Positions 1,576 to 57,685 of a DNA stretch of 64,000 bases are shown piece after piece. The notes under the pieces were generated by a model. That model saw nothing but the letters and a program-made list of their open reading frames with translations. It searched no databases and had not been told where the DNA came from. The translations under genes and the position numbers were made by a program. The first letter of the stretch is position 1. Each line of letters begins with the position of its first letter. Source of the DNA: an uncultured Acidimicrobiia bacterium (GTDB lineage: Bacteria > Actinomycetota > Acidimicrobiia > Acidimicrobiales > JACDCH01); assembly GCA_963821725.1 (NCBI GenBank), contig CAWGFA010000012.1:64229-128228 (forward strand), in the 5' to 3' direction.

Positions 1576-4500
1576 GTGGGTTTCAACAACCCGGCGATGC
1601 CGTGGTCCGAGCTCGAACGACGTCTCTCCGACAACCGCGTTGCCGGGCGCCCGAGCAACGTACCGCCTTCCGCCAACGGGGGCGACAGCCCCGCCTGGTC
1701 CCGCAAGCGCCAGCCGTTCGAGCCACGGGTGCAGCGGCGGCGAGGCTCGGTGCCCTACGCCGAGCTGCACTGTCATTCCAACTTCAGCTTCCTCGACGGC
1801 GCGTCGCATCCCGAAGAGCTCGTCGAAGAAGCAGCGAACCTCGGCCTCGAGGCGCTCGCGCTCACCGATCACGACGGCTTCTACGGCGTGGTCCGCTTCG
1901 CGGAGGCCGCTCGCGAGATCGGGATGCCCACGGTGTTCGGCTCGGAGCTGAGCCTCGAGCTGCGCAAGCCGCAGAACGGCGAGGCCGATCCCGAAGGGCA
2001 CCACCTCGTCGTGCTCGCCCGCGACCCCCAGGGCTATGCCCGCTTGGCCCGCACGCTGAGCGCGGCACACCTGCGCGGCCGTGAGAAGGGCAAACCCGTC
2101 TATTCGCTGTCCGAGCTGGCGCAGGTGCACGCCGGGCACTGGCTCGTGCTCACCGGTTGCCGCAAGGGGACGGTGCCCCTTGCGCTCGTGCGCGACGGTC
2201 CGGCAGCAGCTGCGCGTGCGTTGGCCGATCTCGTCGCAGTGTTCGGCAAGGACAACGTGGCCGTCGAGCTGTGGGATCACAGTGATCCGCTCGACTCTGC
2301 CCGCAACGACGCGCTCGCTCGCGTCGCCGGCCGCGCCGGTGTCGAATGCATCGCCACCAACAACGTGCACTACGCGCAGCAGTCGCGCCGCCAACTCGCC
2401 ACCGCGCTCGCCGCGGTGCGAGCACGCCGCAGTCTCGACGAGCTCGACGGTTGGTTGCCCGCCGCCTCGACCGCTCATTTGCGCGCCGGCTTCGAGCAGC
2501 AGCACGTGTTCCGCCGCTATCCCGGCGTCGTCGAGCGAGCAGGAGCACTCGGCCTCGAGTGTGCGTTCGACCTCCATCTCGTCGCGCCCGACCTGCCGCC
2601 GTACCCGTGTCCCGACGATCTCGACGAGATGCAGTTCCTCCGCAAGCTGGCCGACGAGGGTGCAGCGCGCCGCTACGGGCCGAGGGGCGATCCCACGACC
2701 GGCAAGGCCTACGCGCAGATCGACCACGAGCTCGACCTCATCGAGTCGCTGGGCTTCCCGGGCTACTTCCTCGTCGTGTGGGACATCGTCGAGTTCTGCC
2801 GCCGGTCGAACATCTACTGCCAGGGGCGCGGCTCGGCGGCCAACAGTGCGGTCTGTTACGCGCTCGGCATCACGAACGCGGACGCAGTGACGCTCGGGCT
2901 GCTGTTCGAACGGTTCCTCTCGCCCGAGCGCGACGGCCCACCCGACATCGACATCGACATCGAGAGCACGCGGCGCGAAGAGGCGATCCAGTACGTGTAC
3001 GAGCGCTACGACCGCGAGCACGCGCGCGCAGGTCGCGAACGTCATCACGTATCGAGCGAAGTCGTCGATCCGCGACATGGCGAAGGCGCTCGGGTACTCC
3101 ACCGGCCAGCAGGACGCATGGTCGAAGCAGGCCGACCCATGGGGCCCGCTCGACACGACCATCAAGCAACAGCAGCACGAGCACCAGATCCCACTGCCGG
3201 TCTTGAAGCTGGCGAAGCAGGTCGAGCACTTCCCGCGCCATCTCGGTATCCACTCGGGCGGCATGGTGATCTGCGATCGGCCCATCGTCGAGGTGTGCCC
3301 CATCGAATGGGGCCGCTTCACCGGTCGCAACGGCACCGGCGACGAGCCGATCCGGTCGGTGCTGCAGTGGGACAAGGACGATTGCGCGGCAGCCGGGCTC
3401 GTGAAGTTCGACTTGCTCGGTCTCGGGATGCTGAGCGTGCTGCACCACACGCTCGACTTCGTGCACGAGCACCACCACGACTCCGTCGAGCTCGCCACCG
3501 TCCCGCAGGACGACGCGGTCTACGACATGTTGTGTCGCGCCGACTCCGTCGGTGTGTTCCAGGTCGAGTCACGGGCACAGATGGCGACGTTGCCGCGCCT
3601 CGAGCCCCGATGCTTCTACGACCTCGTCGTCGAGGTCGCGCTCATCCGTCCCGGTCCGATCCAAGGCGGCTCGGTGCACCCGTACATCCGGCGACGCAAC
3701 GGCTCCGAGCCGGTGACGTACCTGCACCCCTTGCTCGAACCGGTGTTGGAGAAGACGCTCGGCGTGCCGCTGTTCCAAGAGCAGCTCATGCAGATCGCCA
3801 TCGAGATCGGCGGGTTCACACCCGGAGAGGCCGACCAGCTCCGTCAGGCAATGGCTTCGAAGCGGAGCCGCGAGCGCATGGAGCGCATCCGCCAGCGCTT
3901 GTACGACGGCATGGCCGAGCGCGGTGTCGTCGGCGACGTCGCCGATCAGATGTGGGACAAGCTCTCGGCCTTCGCCAACTACGGCTTCCCCGAGAGCCAC
4001 TCCGTCAGCTTCGCCTACCTCGTGTACGCCAGCTCGTGGCTCAAGCGGTTCTATCCCGCTGCGTTCTGCGCCGGATTGCTCAACGCGCAACCGATGGGGT
4101 TCTACTCACCGCACTCGCTCGTGCAAGACGCCCGCCGTCACGGCGTCGAGATCCGCACCCCCGATCTCAACGCCTCGGGAGCCAAGGCGACGCTCGAGAT
4201 CGAGCCCGACATGCAGCTGGCACGTGCGCCCCACGACGCACCGCCGGCGGTGTGGGGCAAGGCCGGTCCTGTCGTGCGGCTCGGCATCGGCTCGGTGCGC
4301 GGCATCGGTGAGGAACTGGCCGACGAGATCGCGGCCGGGCGGCCGTACGAGTCCATGGAAGACCTGGCGCGGCGGGTTCCGTCGCTCGCGCTGCCCCAGC
4401 TCGAGGCCATGGCCACAGCCGGTGCGTTCGGCTGCTTCGCGCACGAACGCCGTGAAGCGCTGTGGTCGGCGGGCGCGGTCGCGCAGACCCGGCCCGACCG

Positions 4501-4960
4501 GCTCGCCGGGATCGTGACGGGAGTCGAGGCGCCGGCGCTGCCGGGGATGTCCGACCGTGAGGAATCGAACGCCGACCTGTGGGCGACCGGTGTGGCGCCC
4601 GAAGGTCATCCCACTCGCTTCGAACGACCGCAGCTCGACGCCATGGGCGTCACGCCTGCGACCGGTCTCGCCGCCGTCGACAACGGCGAGAAGGTTCTCG
4701 TCGCCGGCGTCGTGACGCATCGCCAACGTCCCGCGACCGCGGCCGGCATCACGTTCGTCAATCTCGAGGACGAGACCGGCCTCATCAACGTCGTGTGCTC
4801 GAGAGGATGTTGGGTGCGTTACCGCCGCGTGGTCGGTTCGTGTCCCGCGCTGCTCATCCGCGGTCGGTTGGAGAAGCAAGACGGCGTGATCAACGTGAAC
4901 GCCGAACGCATCGACCCCCTACCTCTTCACGCGCCCATCCGGAGCCGCGACTTCCGCTGA
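1576..4960 (+). pseudogene. dnaE2: error-prone DNA polymerase DnaE2 (ImuC, Pol III alpha family), one frame disruption near 3020-3030
   Basis: ORF 1576..4311 starts with the PHP-domain signature YAELHCHSNFSFLDGASHPEELVEEA and stays plausible to ...QYVYERYDREHA. ORF 3077..4960 continues with ...VITYRAKSSIRDMAKALGYS... to the C-terminal OB-fold region. The shift lies inside a GCGCGCGC run. Confidence 0.9.
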
Positions 4961-4969
4961 CCCCCCTGT

Positions 4970-5010
4970 CGAATGTTGGGGGGGCAGCACGGCGACCCGG
5001 AGTTCGGAAG
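4970..5010 (+). repeat. REP-like hairpin element family R, degenerate copy a
   Basis: CGAATGTTGGGGGGGGCAGCACGGCGACCCGGAG keeps both conserved flanks (CGAATGTTGG and CGACCCGGAG), but the left stem arm is replaced by a G run. It starts 9 nt after the dnaE2 stop at 4960. Confidence 0.5.
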
Positions 5011-17044: not shown

Positions 17045-17193
17045 GAGCGTCGTCCTCTCGTCAGGTGCGGAGGAAGACCGTTCACCGCCGGTCGACGAGC
17101 GTGTCCCGATGGTACGGGAGGGGTGTGACATCGAGCGGGCCCGGCCCGGTCTGCACGCGTGCGGAGGGGAGGGACGGCAGGATCGTCGGGGAA

Positions 17194-17242
17194 CCTCGGG
17201 TCGATCCCGGGGCTGTGACCCCGCAATCGCACCAACATTCCG
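17194..17242 (-). repeat. REP-like hairpin element family R, copy b
   Basis: The minus strand reads CGGAATGTTGGTGCGATTGCGGGGTCACAGCCCCGGGATCGACCCGAGG. It lies in the divergent spacer between the nuclease start and the cupin start (32 nt from ATG 17274). Confidence 0.7.
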
Positions 17243-18856: not shown

Positions 18857-18882
18857 GCTTGGCAGCCTACGGCCGAGGCGTT

Positions 18883-18930
18883 CTTCGGGTCGATTGCGGG
18901 GCCATGACCCCACGATCGCACCAACATTCG
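18883..18930 (-). repeat. REP-like hairpin element family R, copy c
   Basis: The minus strand reads CGAATGTTGGTGCGATCGTGGGGTCATGGCCCCGCAATCGACCCGAAG. It begins 10 nt after the YeaQ-family stop (18941) and ends 27 nt before the thiolase start. Confidence 0.75.
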
Positions 18931-30374: not shown

Positions 30375-31791
30375 TCACGAACCGGCAGCGAGCAGCTCCG
30401 CGTACGAATCCTCGAGGCTCGGTGCGTAGCAGTTCGGGATCGTCGACGGCGGCGACGTCGATGTTCAGTCCCATGTCGAGCGACCCGCCTGACGACAGCA
30501 AGGTCAGGTTGAACGCGGTGCCGCCGGTCGGACCCATCGGATAGTTGGCGACGATCTTGGCGCCGGCGACGTAGAGGTCGAACGGCGCACCTCGCACGTT
30601 GGATGTTGCGAAGTCGACGGTTTCGATCTGCTGGCGCGCGAACCGCACGAGGACCGAGGTCGGCAAGCACGTTCGCGACACCCGCGAACGATTCCGGCCA
30701 TCGCCAGCGATCGTTCCGTCTTCGTCACGTTCAACCGGTCGCGCACTGGCGGCGAAGCGTTCGACCGGGTCGGTGATGCCGACGGGCACGAGGACTCTTG
30801 CCGGTGTGAAGGCGTTGCCACCCATCGAGCGGTCCGTACGAGTGGACACCGGCATCGAGATCCGAAGCTCATCGACGTCGATTCCATTGGCTCGGTGATA
30901 CGCGCCCGCAGCCCCCGCCGCGCCGGCAACGAACAGGTCGTTGATGCTTCCTCCCAGTGCCTTCGCGGCGCGCTTCGTGTCGTCGAGCGGTACGCGCAGG
31001 ACTTCGAACCGTCTGCGCAACGAGCGTTCTGTCCACAGCGGCGAATGAGCCCGATCGGTGACTGCGATTTGACGCGCCAGCTGACTGCATGGATGCAGCC
31101 ACCTCGATGCCGACGGCCGGGATGCGCTCTGGATGGCGTAGCAAGTCGGCGGTTCCGACAGCAGCACGGCGTCCGAGCCCCACTCCGCGGCGGATGTTGT
31201 GCGCCGCAGTCTCGGTCGCGGTGGCGACGAAGCTCGCCGGCGGCTCCGATTCGTCGCTGCGGCTTCGGTCGGCGCCGGCGGATCGTCGGGCGTGCCCTCC
31301 CGGCTGAAGTCGATGAACTCGGCGGACATGCGCACGCCGCCTTCGCCGTCGGTCACGGTGTGATGGATCTTCTGGAACAACGCCGCGCCGCCACTGCCGA
31401 CACCGTCGATGATCGTGAACTCCCACAACGGCCGGGTGCGGTCGAGAGGCGCCGCTTCGAGCACGACCGCGAGGTCGAAGAGCGTCCGCTCGGTACGGGG
31501 CTCGGGCAGCGCGATGTGGCGGATGTGGTAGTCGAGGTCGAAGTTGGGATCGTCCTGCCACTCCGGTGGCGCGAGCCGGCCCAGCGCCGGGACCACACGC
31601 TGGCGCAGTCGAGGCACGACGCTCACGGCATGCGCCAGGCGGGCCCGCAGGCGGGCTGGGTCCGGTGGCTGGTCGAGCAGCGTGACGTTCGCGAACGACG
31701 AGGCGAGATATGGGTCCTTCTCGAGGTTCCACATCAGGGCCTCGACGTCGCTCATCCGGTGCTCGCCGAGCACCGGCCTGGTGGCGGCCAT
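30375..31791 (-). pseudogene. wax ester synthase/diacylglycerol acyltransferase (WS/DGAT) family protein, at least five frame disruptions
   Basis: ORF 30238..31791(-) reads ...EHRMSDVEALMWNLEKDP...LFQKIHHTVTDGEGG, which contains the HHxxxDG catalytic motif. The later parts alternate between frames (RLNVTKTERSLAMAGIV, ...VDFATSNVRGAPFDLYVAGAK...). The corrected C-terminus is SLEDSYAELLAAGS*. Confidence 0.8.
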
Positions 31792-38161: not shown

Positions 38162-39590
38162 TGTCGGCGACGCGCTTCGGGTGCTGCTCGACCCGGCGCT
38201 CGAGCCCATCGTCGAAGTCGTCCTCGTGCGCGACGGCGACGCGCTCGAGGCGCACGCTGCCGATGGATCTGTGCGGTTCGATCGGGACGGCGCGGTGCTG
38301 TCGGAGCAAGGCCGGAACCCTCTGGCCGACCAGGCGACCGATCGGTTCGCCGGGCTGGCGAACGAGTGTGCCTCCTTGCAGCCCGACCGCAGCGCGAACA
38401 GCTATCCGTTCGCGTACGAGCAGGCGGCGCAGTTGTTCGACCATCCGTGTGCGCCGGATCTGTGCGTGATCCACACCGCCGCGCACAACTGGGAGGACCA
38501 GGGCGGCCATCGCGGCGAGCACGGGTCGATCGACGTGGTGCAGGCACGGGCGCCCTTCATCATCGCCGGCGCCGGCGTCCGGTCGGCGGGCATGGTGGCG
38601 CGAGCGGCGAAGCTCGTCGACGTGGTTCCGACCCTTCTGCGGCTGATGGGCGCTGCGCCCCCGTTGCAGACCGACGGATCCGTGCTCGACGACGTGCTGC
38701 TGGCCGACGGCAGCCCGCCCGAGCACGTCATCGGGTTCCTGTGGGACGGCTGCAACCCGAACGTGCTGTACGACGCGGTCGCCAACGGTGACGCGCCGAA
38801 CGTCGGACGTCTGATGGCGATGGGCACGACGTACGAGCACGGTGCGATGGCATCGCTGCCGACGGTCACCCTCGCCAACCACACCTCTGTGCTCACCGGC
38901 TTGCACCCGGGTCACCACGGGATCCTGCACAACGCCTGGTGGGACAGCAACGATCTCCGCCAGGTCATCACCAACTCACCCGCGACGTGGCACGAGGCGT
39001 CGAGCTGGCTGTTTCCCGGCGTCGAGACGATGCATGACGCGGTGCACCGCACGTGGCCCGACGCGTGCACGGTGTCCATCAACGAGCCGACAGATGCGGG
39101 CGCCGACTTCTCGACGTTCGACTTCGTGCGCCGGGGCGTGGCGCTCGAACGACCGCCGGCGCCGGACGAGTTGCCGTACGCCGACCAACGGTTCGTGCGC
39201 CCGGTCAAGGAGTACCGGTGGTCGAGCCGGGTCGACCACACGACCGTGCAGCAGTTCAAGGGCGTGTGGTCGGGTCACTACCTGGGCTCGGATTGGGCGC
39301 GCCCCAAGTTCACGTGGTGCAACTTCTCGTTGACGGACGCCGCGTTCCACGAAGGTGGGCCCCATTCGGACATCGCCCTCGCGTCCATACGTGACAGCGA
39401 CGCGCGGCTGGGTCAGATCCTCGACGTCGTCGAGCAGTCGGGTGCGTGGGATCGGACCGCGTTCTTCCTCGTCGCCGACCACGGCATGGAGGAAACGGAC
39501 CCGGCGGTCACCGGCGACTGGAGCCCCGCGCTGACCGACGCCGGCATCTCCCACCGCGACGAAGCCTTCGGGTTCATCTACCTCACGTAG
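38145..39590 (+). CDS. alkaline-phosphatase superfamily protein (nucleotide pyrophosphatase/phosphodiesterase-like)
   Basis: Intact 481-aa ORF that overlaps the upstream gene by 17 nt. The NPP-type nucleophile region is LPTVTLANHTSVLTGLHPGHHGI and the distal metal site is FFLVADHGM. The first 170 aa resemble the C-terminal part of an NPP domain (HTAAHNWEDQGGHRGEHG). Confidence 0.7.
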   Translation: MSATTDVGDALRVLLDPALEPIVEVVLVRDGDALEAHAADGSVRFDRDGAVLSEQGRNPLADQATDRFAGLANECASLQPDRSANSYPFAYEQAAQLFDHPCAPDLCVIHTAAHNWEDQGGHRGEHGSIDVVQARAPFIIAGAGVRSAGMVARAAKLVDVVPTLLRLMGAAPPLQTDGSVLDDVLLADGSPPEHVIGFLWDGCNPNVLYDAVANGDAPNVGRLMAMGTTYEHGAMASLPTVTLANHTSVLTGLHPGHHGILHNAWWDSNDLRQVITNSPATWHEASSWLFPGVETMHDAVHRTWPDACTVSINEPTDAGADFSTFDFVRRGVALERPPAPDELPYADQRFVRPVKEYRWSSRVDHTTVQQFKGVWSGHYLGSDWARPKFTWCNFSLTDAAFHEGGPHSDIALASIRDSDARLGQILDVVEQSGAWDRTAFFLVADHGMEETDPAVTGDWSPALTDAGISHRDEAFGFIYLT

Positions 39591-39598
39591 GTCGGTTG

Positions 39599-39646
39599 CG
39601 AATGTTGGTGCGCCGTGGTCGCTATGGCGACCACGGCGACCCGGAG
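39599..39646 (+). repeat. REP-like hairpin element family R, copy d (swapped stem)
   Basis: CGAATGTTGGTG-CGCCGTGGTCGC-tatg-GCGACCACGGCG-ACCCGGAG. The flanks match the family, but the perfect 12-bp stem has a different sequence. It starts 8 nt after the stop at 39590. Confidence 0.75.
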
Positions 39647-40472
39647 ATCACGGGGGGAGTGAGGATCAACTCGTCCGGGAGGTCGAACGGCGCCGGCTGT
39701 GAGCCGTCGATGTCGGTGACGCCGTAGTCGCGAGCGAGCTCGCCGACGCGATAGCCGCCACCGGATCGGCGCGCGACCTCCGGGTCCGATAGGAGGGCGG
39801 CGACGCAGCGACCCGTGTACTCGGGTGACTCGAGTCCTGTCGCGCCCGCCATCTGCACCCGCTCGGTCGTGGTGAAGCCCGGGAACACGGCGACGACGTT
39901 CACGCCGTGAGGACGCAGCTCGTGGGCGAGAGTCGCGGTGGCGCGCACGATCGCCGACTTCGCCGTGTCGTACATGACCGCGCCCAGGTAGCGGCCGCGG
40001 TCCCACGCCGCGATGTTCACGATGAGGCCGCGGGAGCCGAGAAGCATCGGGATCGCGGCGTGCGACGTCGCCAGCGTGGGCTGCAGGCCGGCGACGAACA
40101 TGCCGTTCCACTTCGCGACGAAGTCCTGCTCCCAGAACGGCGCGGAGAACCCTGCGTGGTCGTACACCTCGTAGCCGCCCCACGCGTTGTTCACGAGCAC
40201 GTCGAGGTTGCCGTCGCAGTCGTCGGCGACGCGCTGCATCAACGCCTCGATGTCGGCGTAGTCGGTGTGGTCGCAACGGACCGCGACGCCGCGGCCGCCC
40301 CGCTCGGTGACGAGTGCCGCGGTCTCGTCCACGGTGCCGGGTGCGTCGTCGAGCGGTTTCGTCCCACCCGTGGTGCGACCGGTCACGTACACGACTGCGC
40401 CCATGTCGCCGAGGGACAACGCGATGCCACGACCGATGCCACGACTCGCTCCGGTGACGATCGCGACAGTCA
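39622..40472 (-). CDS. SDR family oxidoreductase
   Basis: Real part of ORF 39622..40794(-), GTG start at 40472. VTVAIVTGASRGIGRGIA...NNAWGG...YDTAKSA.... The last 8 codons lie inside repeat copy d, so the exact 3' end is uncertain. Confidence 0.8.
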
Positions 40473-40501
40473 CGGCTGCACCGTACGAATCCGAGTGCGA
40501 G

Positions 40502-40619
40502 CGACGGAGCGCCAGCGGAGGAGCGGCCATGACCGGCCTGCGTGGCCGGGGAACGCCGACAGCACGACGGAGCGCCAGCGGAGGAGCGGCCATGACCGGC
40601 CTGCGTGGCCGGGGAACGC
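40502..40619. repeat. tandem-repeat family T, two perfect 55-bp copies with a 63-bp period
   Basis: CGACGGAGCGCCAGCGGAGGAGCGGCCATGACCGGCCTGCGTGGCCGGGGAACGC occurs at 40502-40556 and again at 40565-40619. On the minus strand the array begins 11 nt after the acyl-CoA dehydrogenase stop (40631) and ends 30 nt before the SDR start (40472). Confidence 0.85.
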
Positions 40620-40630
40620 AGGTGGCATCG

Positions 40631-41738
40631 TCATTGCTTCGGCAGGCCCAAGATGCGCTCGCCGATGATGTTCTTCTGCACCTGAGTCGTTCCTCCCGCG
40701 ATGCGTCCGCCGGGCGCGGCCGTCGCACCGAGCGACGCGTCGTTGGCCAGCATGGCGTCTGCTCCGCCGATCGACGTGCGCAGCATCGCGGCATCGAACA
40801 GCAACTCGGTCACGCCCAGCTTCAGCAACGAGCCCGCGACCGACGCCATCGGTCCCTGTCGTTGCGCGAGCGCGAGATAGGCGCGCCCGCGTGCGACGAG
40901 GTGCGCGAGCTCGTCGCGCTCGACAGGGCCGACGCCACGGTCGGAGCTGTCGGCCATCGACGCCATCCCGTCGAGGCGGCGCTGCAGCGAGATGGCCGAC
41001 GCGCCGATGTGGCCGCGCTCGTTCGTGAGCGTCGCCATCCCGACGTTCCAACCGTCGTTCTCGGCACCCAGGAGACAGGTCGCAGGTACGCGCACAGTGT
41101 CGAGGAAGACCTCGTCGAACTCGGATCCGCCCGTCATCTGCCGCAGCGGCCGCACGTCGACACCCGGCGAGTGCATGTCGACCAGGAAGAACGAGATGCC
41201 GCGGTGCGGTTTGGCCGTCGGGTCGGTCCGGGCCATGCAGATGCCCCAGTCGCTGATCCGGCCGTTGGAGCACCAGACCTTCTGCCCGGTCAGGACGATA
41301 CTCGTCCCCGTCACGGTCCGCTCGTGTGGTGAGGGAGGCGAGGTCGGATCCCGCGCCCGGCTCGCTGAACAACTGGCACCAAACGCGCTCGCCGGTGATG
41401 ATCGGTCGCAGGTGCTCTCGCTGCTGCTCCTCGGTGCCGAACAGGAGCAACGATCCGCCCGCGAGGACGACGCCGACCATGTTGATGAAGGGCGGGACAC
41501 CGGCGAGCGCGCACTGCTCGATCCAGGCCGCCGTGTGCTCGGGCGTGAGGCCGCGCCCGCCGTGTTCCTCGGGCCAGTGGATGCCGGCGAAGCCGGCGTC
41601 GAAGAGTCGTCGTTGCCACGCGGTTCCTTCGTCGCGCAGATCGGGCGGCAGGATCGCGCCGTAGTCCCGCGGCGCGTCCGACTTGTTCGCCGCCAGCCAC
41701 GCCGCCGCCTCGTCCCGGAACGCCTCGACGTCGATCAC
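40631..41738 (-). pseudogene. acyl-CoA dehydrogenase family protein, one frame disruption near 41300
   Basis: ORF 40470..41738(-) gives MIDVEAFRDEAAAWL...WCQLFSEPGAGSDLASLTTRADRDGDEY. ORF 40631..41500(-) continues with ...IVLTGQKVWCSNG...GGTTQVQKNIIGERILGLPKQ. Confidence 0.85.
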
Positions 41739-41761
41739 CTGCGCTCGTCCCTCCTGGCGAA

Positions 41762-41809
41762 CTCCGGGTCGATTGTGGGGCTATAACCCCACAATCGAAC
41801 CAACATTCG
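41762..41809 (-). repeat. REP-like hairpin element family R, copy e (best copy)
   Basis: The minus strand reads CGAATGTTGGT-TCGATTGTGGGG-ttatag-CCCCACAATCGA-CCCGGAG. It begins 10 nt after the SDR stop (41820) and ends 24 nt before the acyl-CoA dehydrogenase start (41738). Confidence 0.8.
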
Positions 41810-41819
41810 GAAGCGAGGA

Positions 41820-42713
41820 TCAGGACAGGGCCTTGAGGGCGAGGCCCAGTTCCTCGTTGAGGTTGGTGGGCACCGAGTAGCCGGACTCCTCGCGGATCTC
41901 GTCGAAGTGATCGCGGACCGACTCGGGCGACAGTTCGTGATCGACGAAGCCCGGCGTCACGCCGACGAAGACGCGGGCGACGCGTCCGCCGCCGACGGAG
42001 TAGACCTCGCCGCTGACCGGACAGCTGTCGTGGGCGAGGTACGTGACGAGCGGCGTCACGAACTCGGGCGCGAGCTTGTCGGCGATCGGACCGAGCAGCT
42101 CCTCGGTCATGCGTGTCTTCGCCACCGGCGCGATCGCGTTGGCCTTGATGTTGCTCTTCGCACCCTCGACCGCGAGCACGCGGGTGAGGCCGACGAGTCC
42201 CATCTTGGCCGCGCCGTAGTTGCCCTGGCCGAAGTTGCCGAACACGCCGGCGCCCGACGACGTGTTCACGATGCGCCCGTACCCCTGCTCACGCATGATC
42301 GACCATGCCGGTTGGGTCACGTAGAACGCCCCCCGCAGGTGCACGTCGAGCACCGGGTTGAGCTGGTCGGGCGTCATGTTCTTGAACGACGCGTCGCGCA
42401 GGATGCCGGCGTTGTTGATGATGATGTCGACTCGGCCGAACGCGTCGGTCGCGGTCTTGACGATGTTGGCGCCGCCTTCGGGTGTGGCGACCGAGTCGTA
42501 GTTGGGCACCGCCTCGCCGCCCGCTGCCTTGATCTCGTCGACCACCTTCTGTGCGGCCGTCTCCGACCCGCCGGTGCCGTCGACCGAGCCGCCGAGGTCG
42601 TTCACCACGACCAGTGCGCCGCGCTTCGCGAGCTCGAGCGCATGTGACCGTCCCAATCCGCCTCCGGCACCGGTGATGATCGCAACCTTGCCGTCGAATC
42701 CCAGATCTGCCAT
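41820..42713 (-). CDS. SDR family oxidoreductase (NDLGG-type, like the dehydrogenase domain of multifunctional hydroxyacyl-CoA dehydrogenases)
   Basis: Intact 297-aa ORF. GKVAIITGAGGGLGRSHAL...VVVNDLGG...NNAGILRD...YGAAKMG.... Confidence 0.85.
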   Translation of the reverse strand: MADLGFDGKVAIITGAGGGLGRSHALELAKRGALVVVNDLGGSVDGTGGSETAAQKVVDEIKAAGGEAVPNYDSVATPEGGANIVKTATDAFGRVDIIINNAGILRDASFKNMTPDQLNPVLDVHLRGAFYVTQPAWSIMREQGYGRIVNTSSGAGVFGNFGQGNYGAAKMGLVGLTRVLAVEGAKSNIKANAIAPVAKTRMTEELLGPIADKLAPEFVTPLVTYLAHDSCPVSGEVYSVGGGRVARVFVGVTPGFVDHELSPESVRDHFDEIREESGYSVPTNLNEELGLALKALS

Positions 42714-57633: not shown

Positions 57634-57685
57634 CGAATGTTGGTTCGATTGTGGGGCTATCGCCCCACAATCGACCCGAAGTTGG
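57634..57685 (+). repeat. REP-like hairpin element family R, copy f
   Basis: CGAATGTTGGT-TCGATTGTGGGGC-tatc-GCCCCACAATCGA-CCCGAAGTTGG. It lies between the nucS start (57606) and the aldo/keto reductase stop (57698), both on the minus strand. This copy is therefore antisense to the flanking genes. Confidence 0.8.

Follow-up and report, generated by a model that had tools for sequence, protein, structure and literature searches.

Constant flanks and exchangeable stems in a dispersed hairpin family of soil Acidimicrobiales

A stretch of 64,000 nucleotides from an uncultured Acidimicrobiia bacterium (assembly GCA_963821725.1, contig CAWGFA010000012.1, positions 64,229 to 128,228; hereafter the window) carries six copies, a to f, of a short hairpin repeat. 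One of them, copy d, raises the question of how such a repeat can exchange its stem and still pair perfectly. Positions 39599-39646 read CGAATGTTGGTG-CGCCGTGGTCGC-TATG-GCGACCACGGCG-ACCCGGAG, with a perfect 12-bp helix, CGCCGTGGTCGC/GCGACCACGGCG, closed by a 4-nt loop. The flanks are common to the five other copies of the window, but copy d has CCGTGGTCGC/GCGACCACGG as its distal stem where 4/6 copies have stems of the ATTGYGGGG/CCCCRCAAT type. A sequence-only reading, which quoted these positions exactly and described the TATG loop and the helix correctly, took the exchange of both arms as selection on the hairpin and on single-stranded flanks, and contrasted it with the behavior of a mobile-element remnant. 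We arrive at a different answer: copy d is probably an ordinary member of a family of dispersed hairpins of about 52 nt, similar to repetitive extragenic palindromic (REP) sequences, found in soil Acidimicrobiales, and the stems of this family are overwritten in place.

Copy d is not a chance look-alike of the family, a possibility to which we give no weight. The two-flank pattern with its fixed 27-nt spacer and at most one mismatch had 5 matches in the window (copy d and the four listed in Table 1), against 0 in 100 dinucleotide-preserving shuffles. When only the flanks (CGAATGTTGGT N20-36 CGACCCGRAG) were used to scan a single genome of each species, at least 67 loci were returned, those listed all lying in metagenome-assembled genomes (MAGs) of Acidimicrobiales/Acidimicrobiia. 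Dozens of copies in related genomes combine these flanks with the stem type of copy d, CCGTGG[C/T]C[C/G]C, which is the majority type among the related Acidimicrobiales MAG loci listed. The main carriers among the matches listed were MFD04850.bin.2.5 (CAWDIH01), which is about 90% identical to the window over syntenic stretches, and SMAG_U6783 (DATAES01), at about 80-86%; SMAG_U5409 and one other genome also had matches. A scan of soil metagenomes with the same flanks, from which the copy-d stem type was deliberately excluded, gave 106 soil contigs with many other stems.

We counted 85 copies in 578 kb, at most 4/85 of them inside a gene called by a simple codon-usage gene caller, which was also the source of the gene contexts given below. 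Scaled from the density of the window (6 copies per 64 kb), a genome of about 5 Mb would contain an estimated several hundred copies. Genomes and soil metagenomes together provided a pooled set of 149 unique 52-nt elements, an alignment of 69 copies was used for the pairing tests, and a covariance model of the element, R1, was built, whose scores are given in bits. The flanks stood at a constant 31-nt spacing in 177/190 pattern matches, among them 6 that are not intact copies of the hairpin. This invariance is partly imposed by the search patterns used; copies found through R1 have limited flank variation (CCAATG, GCAATG, CGGATG, GGAATG). Two metagenome matches (L097 and L120) were rejected as chance, being non-hairpin sequences on contigs of 55% GC, L097 inside a gene, and two others (L119 and L158) were dropped as poorly paired. 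At L121:~230-560 (soil contig Ga0066903_100451530, 62% GC), a cluster of inverted CGAAGTTCG/CGAACTTCG repeats with non-hairpin interiors matched the flank pattern; these look like a different repeat system of another organism.

The 69-copy alignment defines the element as a 52-nt unit, CGAATGTTGG...CCCGRAGTTCG, built of two modules. The constant module consists of the flanks CGAAUGUUGG and CCCGRAGUUCG, which are mutually complementary and therefore probably form a lower helix rather than remaining single-stranded as the sequence-only reading had it. This helix has ten positions and exists on one strand only: C1-G52, G2-C51, A3-U50, A4-U49, U5.G48, a G6xA47 mismatch, U7.G/A46, U8.G45, G9-C44 and G10-C43, with three invariant U.G wobbles beside the G.A mismatch. 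The variable module is an upper helix of 12-13 bp, nearly free in sequence, under a TATA-like tetraloop. Loops most often read TATA, and one in two is a self-complementary tetranucleotide (TATA, CATG, TCGA). In RNA folds of copies e and f the lower helix was formed on the sense strand; on the other strand, in which the wobbles turn into A.C, it largely was not. Sense-strand fold energies ranged from -35 to -39 kcal/mol in 71-nt windows.

The complete copy d, CGAATGTTGGT-GCG-CCGTGGTCGC-TATG-GCGACCACGG-CG-ACCCGGAG-ATCA, runs 4 nt beyond position 39646 on the forward strand. Its parts are CGAATGTTGG as the 5' half of the lower helix, TGCG plus CCGTGGTCGC as the upper 5' arm, the TATG loop, GCGACCACGG plus CGA as the upper 3' arm, and CCCGGAGATCA as the 3' half of the lower helix. 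The 3' end is ATCA instead of TTCG, and the minimum-energy fold of neither strand uses the lower helix in this copy.

Pairing of the upper stem is kept while its sequence is free, as had been proposed. In the 69-copy alignment, 91% of the cells were paired and 8 pairs had double changes; the observed covariation was reached in 0/500 shuffles, and sliding the partners by 1-3 columns reduced pairing to 30-49%. In the pooled set, pairing reached 89-99% at each upper-stem position, and positions 13-24/29-40 had 3-4 types of Watson-Crick pair (for example, UA 58, CG 45 and AU 35 at positions 16/37). The wording "structured RNA or DNA target with sequence-specific flanks" is thus a fair description, given the maintained pairing and the constant flanks. 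Selection on the hairpin is a different matter. Each stem class is present in multiple copies, so that covariation alone is not readable as selection on RNA; it mostly represents the spread of a few master sequences and the upkeep of palindromes, and not compensatory evolution that proceeded independently at each locus.

One strand can be named as the functional one. The U.G pairs of the lower helix are invariant, and G.U pairs outnumber A.C pairs in the upper stems. The counts are 24 vs 11 in the genome set and about 93 vs 25 in unique upper stems (per-position counts summed by hand), although they do not represent independent events, the class GGGAAC/GTTTCT carrying two inherited wobbles. 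Both a sense RNA and the "top strand" of single-stranded-DNA transposition would agree with a single-stranded form that is specific to one strand.

The same flanks surround many different stems. The pooled set contains 50 distinct 5' arms and 20 distinct perfectly Watson-Crick 12-bp stems, which fall into at least seven clusters. Describing the distal stem of copy d as "unrelated" to the others was slightly overstated, in that a GTGG core is common to the stem classes, with intermediate and chimeric stems also present. Nor is the base of the stem (GCG...CGA) a constant part of the family, for the class [AG]TGG[AG]AACGGGYGC / GCRCCCGTTTCTC, found at L040:3104, L038:3425, L028:3784, L022:2485 and many metagenome loci, replaces it too; on the sense strand, two G.U wobbles are inherited in this class.

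The stem classes are genome-specific, each genome having its own predominant stem type or types. In SMAG_U6783, CCGTGGCCCC was found in 42/44 copies. The same stem was absent from MFD04850.bin.2.5, where we found TCGC 12 times, CCGC 6 times, ATTGYGGGG 5 times, GGAAACGGG 4 times and ATGTGG 3 times. The window itself has ATTGYGGGG in four copies, TCGC in copy d and one deletion remnant. Copy d, presented earlier as an exception, therefore carries the stem type that is commonest in the closest relative. The check proposed earlier, whether the classes follow the neighboring genes, gave no clear link between stem class and gene context.

Orthologous sites show the exchange directly. We identified eleven orthologous pairs with a flanking identity of 76-94%, and in the MAG-to-MAG pairs each site has the class of its own genome (5/5). 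The site of copy e, the clearest case, could be compared in three genomes: the window has ATTGTGGGG as the stem, MFD04850.bin.2.5 has GGAAACGGGCGC and SMAG_U6783 has CCGTGGCCCC. The flank cores GAATGTTGG and CCCGGAGTTCG are identical in all three, even though the few surrounding intergenic bases cannot be aligned, which bears out the earlier emphasis on the flanks. Since independent point mutation cannot give three stems between identical flanks, the stems must have been replaced or converted in place. In MFD04850.bin.2.5, copy d has an exact chimera as its ortholog (L022:4476-4527). The 5' arm of this ortholog is CGATGTGGTGGC, which occurs elsewhere as a perfect palindrome class; the TATG loop and the 3' arm GCGACCACGGCG are those of copy d, and the resulting stem contains two non-standard pairs and one wobble. 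This chimera points to patch-wise stem replacement.

Copies are also gained or lost between relatives. The site of copy b is empty in the ~90%-identical MFD04850.bin.2.5 (L041 ~1920-1968), and that of copy d is empty in SMAG_U6783 (L056 ~4489-4542). At the latter site the phosphodiesterase and short-chain dehydrogenase (SDR) genes that flank copy d overlap at their stops in the palindrome TCACGTGA, so that the element sits where no intergenic space existed. No excess of direct repeats of 2-6 nt, as expected of a target-site duplication, was found at any boundary offset in 77 copies. Presence/absence differences, a deletion remnant (copy a), genome-specific subfamilies and the replacement of stems at orthologous sites are what a dispersed repeat in turnover would leave, and the contrast drawn earlier with a mobile-element remnant does not hold. 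The copies are singlets only, the closest pairs lying about 0.6-1 kb apart (L025, L109, L020). Soil contig Ga0066696_10172554 (L145:1-90) carries a complete element and, 6 nt upstream of it, the truncated 5' part of one of that class, CGAATGTTGGGGGGTGGGAAC; this fragment may be the footprint of an insertion into a resident copy or of a partial duplication of one.

The location of the copies is as regular as their architecture. The distance from the stop codon of the upstream same-strand gene to the first base of the element is typically 0-20 nt, with a median of about 9 nt, and between convergent genes a stop is equally near on the other side of the element. Among copies in gaps between co-directional genes, 32 of the genome set and 23 of the metagenome set were in sense orientation, compared to 11 and 9 in antisense, a bias of 55 vs 20 (about 3:1, ~73%). 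A further 30 and 37 copies, respectively, lie between convergent genes, and 7 and 6 between divergent genes. The neighbors are ordinary chromosomal genes, encoding DNA polymerase III alpha, thiolase, SDRs, acyl-CoA dehydrogenase and phosphodiesterase. Clustering the gene families beside the elements in search of a mobility gene recovered only metabolic paralogs (SDR, acyl-CoA dehydrogenase, enoyl-CoA hydratase, luciferase-like). A gene with DUF559 and AbiEi_4 domains lies between two inverted elements at L020:4040-5130 of SMAG_U6783, and its 3' end runs through the second element. No other such gene was seen beside elements, and the arrangement was treated as coincidence.

In about ten cases the reading frame of a neighboring gene enters the element and stops at the TAG or CTA of the loop. 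Copy d is among them, its loop CTA (39622-39624) being the stop codon of the convergent SDR gene, and the others are at L053, L007, L022, L001, L024 and five metagenome loci. The SDR protein of the window and its SMAG_U6783 ortholog, whose site is empty, end in different residues. The loop sequence CTATAG reads as a stop on both strands; the element thus rewrites the last residues of some proteins and gives them a stop codon. In every gene context the element is preceded by a C-rich segment (C 36-54%, -10 to -3) and followed by a G-rich one (G 41-64%, +4 to +12). These outer flanks pair no better with each other than with mismatched partners; the skew is compositional and could come from a preferred kind of target or from an element that extends, in degenerate form, beyond its ends.

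The features of the window are listed in Table 1. Copy a is located 9 nt past the stop of the DNA polymerase III alpha gene (neighbor annotated by Pfam), and its ortholog in SMAG_U6783 (L044:3865-3916) is intact. In copy b the outermost pair is flipped to G...C (GGAA...TTCC), a compensatory change. Copy c occupies an intercistronic gap, 10 nt past a stop codon and 22 nt ahead of the thiolase gene; its ortholog (L041:266-317) has the same stem class with 5 point differences. Copy d starts 8 nt past the TAG stop of the forward-strand phosphodiesterase gene. Copy e lies in sense orientation in an 81-nt gap between co-directional SDR and acyl-CoA dehydrogenase genes. The 3' end of copy f is 12 nt from the stop of a reverse-strand aldo/keto reductase gene, and this copy is probably in antisense orientation.

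Table 1. Copies of the hairpin element in the window, with the genes on both sides of copy d (positions are those of the 64,000-nt window; flank-pattern matches are those with the fixed 27-nt spacer)
Feature	Position	Strand	Flank-pattern match	Description
Copy a	4970..5006	+		Deletion remnant; both flanks intact; 5' arm and loop (15 nt) gone; remaining 3' arm class-1-like
Copy b	17190..17241	-	17194-17240 (-)	ATTGCGGGG-class stem; 2 non-standard pairs (G.G, C.A) and one G.U wobble; 47.9 bits
Copy c	18879..18930	-	18883-18929 (-)	ATCGTGGGG/CCCCGCAAT stem; 3' end AACG, not TTCG
Weak match	31187-31240	+		Covariance-model match, 18.7 bits, E about 0.003, degenerate flanks; may be a decayed seventh copy or chance
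Type I phosphodiesterase / nucleotide pyrophosphatase family gene	38181..39590	+		Upstream of copy d; start codon uncertain
Copy d	39599..39650	+		52-nt element; 75.5 bits; stem class 1b (TCGC)
Short-chain dehydrogenase (SDR) gene	39622..40794	-		Convergent; last 9 codons and stop codon within copy d
Copy e	41758..41809	-	41762-41808 (-)	Perfect ATTGTGGGG/CCCCACAAT stem; -39.4 kcal/mol, z -6.1
Copy f	57634..57685	+	57635-57681 (+)	Perfect ATTGTGGGG/CCCCACAAT stem; TATC loop

Homogeneous stems within a genome, replacement in place, self-complementary loops and presence/absence differences together require copying at the DNA level. We suggest that a strand-specific machinery reads the constant module and the geometry of the hairpin and not the sequence of the stem. 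The likeliest candidate would be an enzyme acting on single-stranded DNA hairpins, as the REP-associated tyrosine transposases (RAYTs, of the Y1 type) do for REPs. It would copy elements into new sites at gene ends, leaving no target duplication, and would also overwrite the variable module of resident elements. The expected outcome is a genome that converges on its own stem type or types and orthologous sites that differ in their stems between genomes. Elements would be tolerated hardly anywhere but in the 20 nt or so next to a stop codon, and a sense transcript of one would end in a very stable 3' hairpin that may protect or terminate transcripts, which would explain the 3:1 sense bias. The stable transcript hairpin is likely the reason why the elements are tolerated, and so oriented, at gene ends. 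With evidence at both the RNA and the DNA level, we combine the two, the propagation and overwriting of DNA being the cause of the swapped-stem pattern.

Several observations weigh against this reading. No Y1/HUH motif (motif scan) and no RayT homolog (phmmer with the E. coli RayT) were found in 848 kb, a weak negative in that RAYTs are single-copy genes and complete genomes lay outside the scan. The GTAG/CGTC tag of classical REPs is absent from the family, and its members are singlets only, with no doublets such as the REPINs (REP doublets forming hairpins) or bacterial interspersed mosaic elements (BIMEs). Neither empty-site comparison has clean boundaries, about 9-16 extra non-conserved bases being present 5' of the element. 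For patch-wise replacement the evidence is thin, with both arms matching known perfect classes in just 2/55 imperfect copies. Finally, a constraint at the RNA level accounts for the orientation bias with respect to transcription, and for orientations that alternate within the 64 kb of the window, at least as well as replication-linked transposition of single-stranded DNA does.

These last observations lead to the first rival, which we consider unlikely: a purely cis-acting structured RNA, that is, a 3'-untranslated region (UTR) or intercistronic hairpin serving as a terminator without a U-tract, a protector of the mRNA 3' end or a processing site of the RNase III type of about 22 bp, with spread and homogenization being secondary. 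A factor would then recognize the wobble-rich lower helix, while the upper helix is kept paired and its sequence is free. Such a role agrees with copies that begin about 9 nt past stop codons, in sense to the upstream gene in about three quarters of co-directional gaps and to one of the two genes at every convergent site, and whose orientations alternate along the window with the genes and not with one replication direction. The excess of G.U over A.C on the sense strand, the invariant U.G pairs that restrict the lower helix to that strand and the very stable folds point the same way. Selection on RNA alone, however, cannot give one stem in 42/44 copies or own-genome stems at orthologous sites, and copying of DNA would still be needed. 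Also at odds with it are the antisense quarter of co-directional copies, the 13 copies between divergent genes and the lack of a U-tract at the elements, as well as loops of which half are self-complementary, a signature of DNA palindromes that an RNA loop does not need. No terminator-like site was found in 39300-42000. Rfam 15 had no gathering-level match in the whole window, and a search of two copies at E<=10 returned generic microRNA-like hairpin noise far under threshold. Less probable again is a reading in which a previously unrecognized hairpin-overwriting system serves the family, with an enzyme, not necessarily a RAYT, that docks on the wobble-rich lower helix and swaps upper stem-loops between copies, giving a genome-wide concerted evolution of hundreds of 3'-UTR hairpins; in a variant of this reading, the host uses the lower helix as a shared signal for RNA processing or termination. 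The half-and-half chimera at L022 suggests that breakpoints of such overwriting would possibly lie in the TATA-like loop.

Two further explanations are very improbable. A transposable element of the miniature inverted-repeat kind (MITE) moved by a DDE transposase would have the flanks as imperfect terminal inverted repeats (CGAAYKYYGG) and the stems as interchangeable internal sequence. The flanks do form an imperfect inverted repeat, internal sequence varies by subfamily and presence is polymorphic, but a target-site duplication of 2-6 bp is missing at every boundary offset and a 52-nt unit is far under the usual sizes of MITEs. Moreover, three T-vs-C differences between the "repeats" are invariant, as expected of a strand-specific reading and not of two equivalent transposase sites, and cut-and-paste insertion would not be expected to replace an element at one site with its boundaries unchanged. 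A site in double-stranded DNA, either a cruciform or a binding site for a nucleoid or topology protein with constant half-sites around a palindromic spacer, hardly fares better. It would account for two constant flanks at a fixed spacing, and E. coli REPs are reported to bind proteins such as IHF. Such a site gives no reason for a spacer that stays perfectly self-complementary through many sequence classes or for the strand asymmetry of the wobble pairs, and it leaves the proximity to stop codons and the orientation bias unexplained.

The propagation and overwriting of REP-like hairpins thus remains our preferred reading of copy d. The family is undescribed, and what is new is the combination of a constant lower helix with an exchangeable upper stem in a REP-like repeat of Acidimicrobiales; the general phenomenon has precedent. 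A full-text literature search for the flank sequences returned unrelated primers and short hairpin RNAs and nothing in a bacterial context, and viral contigs scanned with the flank pattern gave 0 matches. Among short non-coding DNA that endures and evolves as a population within bacterial genomes, REP-type repeats are the best-known example, and almost all that is known of them comes from the GTAG-tagged, RAYT-linked families of Proteobacteria. The present family is distinct in its uncultured soil Acidimicrobiales host, in having no tag and in a constant recognition module that is cleanly apart from the exchangeable stem. It offers unusually clear cases, such as one chromosomal site with three unrelated, perfectly paired stems in three related genomes, and makes the in-place overwriting of dispersed hairpin repeats a concrete, testable question. 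It also carries a warning, in that covariation in such repeats is no evidence for a functional RNA. In practice, the covariance model can be used to annotate the elements in Acidimicrobiia MAGs, where they alter gene ends, give stop codons and may confuse gene callers.

Several known systems share part of these properties. Integron attC sites are imperfect palindromes read as a folded single strand, with recognition of the structure and not of the stem sequence; they have conserved ends and a variable center and, in a fixed orientation, come directly after a gene's stop codon. The Acidimicrobiales element shares these folded-strand, end-conserved and stop-adjacent features. We rejected membership because the element lacks the R''/R' core sites RYYYAAC / GTTRRRY (its GTTGGTG departs from GTTRRRY, and no AAC core lies opposite) and because the copies are scattered on both strands among syntenic housekeeping and metabolic orthologs, not in cassette arrays beside an integrase. 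Palindrome-associated transposable elements (PATEs) derived from IS200/IS605 have strand-specific hairpin ends, do not require inverted repeats and make no target duplication. The strand-specific hairpin and the lack of target duplication are found here as well, but the element is a single hairpin of 52 nt in place of separate left-end and right-end hairpins, and no conserved target of 4-5 nt lies 5' of it (no base exceeds 54% at -1 to -24). Mycobacterial interspersed repetitive units (MIRUs) are actinobacterial intercistronic repeats that are oriented with the operon and abut the flanking stop and start codons; they are tandem units of 40-100 bp without a long hairpin. Our element is similarly an intercistronic repeat at gene ends and differs in its long hairpin and swappable stem; MIRUs are not known to have constant flanks around such a stem. 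An intrinsic terminator would also be a stable GC-rich hairpin right after stops and enriched between convergent genes, but the G-rich sequence that follows the element instead of a U-tract excludes this assignment, and constant flanks with genome-specific stems are unlike ordinary terminators. The merely imperfect inverted repeats at the termini and the missing duplication led us to reject membership among MITEs.

The closest comparison is with REPs and REPINs. One end of a REP carries an unpaired, conserved tetranucleotide, GTAG or CGTC (PMC3733652). No such tag is present in the consensus CGAATGTTGG...CCCGRAGTTCG, in which both ends are conserved, mutually complementary and flank the hairpin on both sides. 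Unlike REPINs and BIMEs, the Acidimicrobiales copies occur as singlets. A RAYT gene, in REP/RAYT systems usually flanked by the repeats, was not found in the 848 kb scanned, complete genomes being outside that scan. The host lineage is not among the groups that the two papers cited here name for tagged REPs, and the word "Actinobacteria" is absent from PMC3733652. Membership of the REP/RAYT systems is therefore unproven, but the family works like REP. Both are short GC-rich extragenic palindromes of high copy number at gene 3' ends that make no target duplication and combine a conserved non-stem "head" with family- or strain-specific stems. REP termini are known to supply stop codons (PMC3733652), as the sequence of our element sometimes does. 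In Pseudomonas chlororaphis, REPINs at orthologous positions change type to match the predominant RAYT of the genome (bioRxiv 10.1101/2024.10.14.618302), and in the soil Acidimicrobiales, too, the type at a conserved orthologous position follows the predominant type of the genome.

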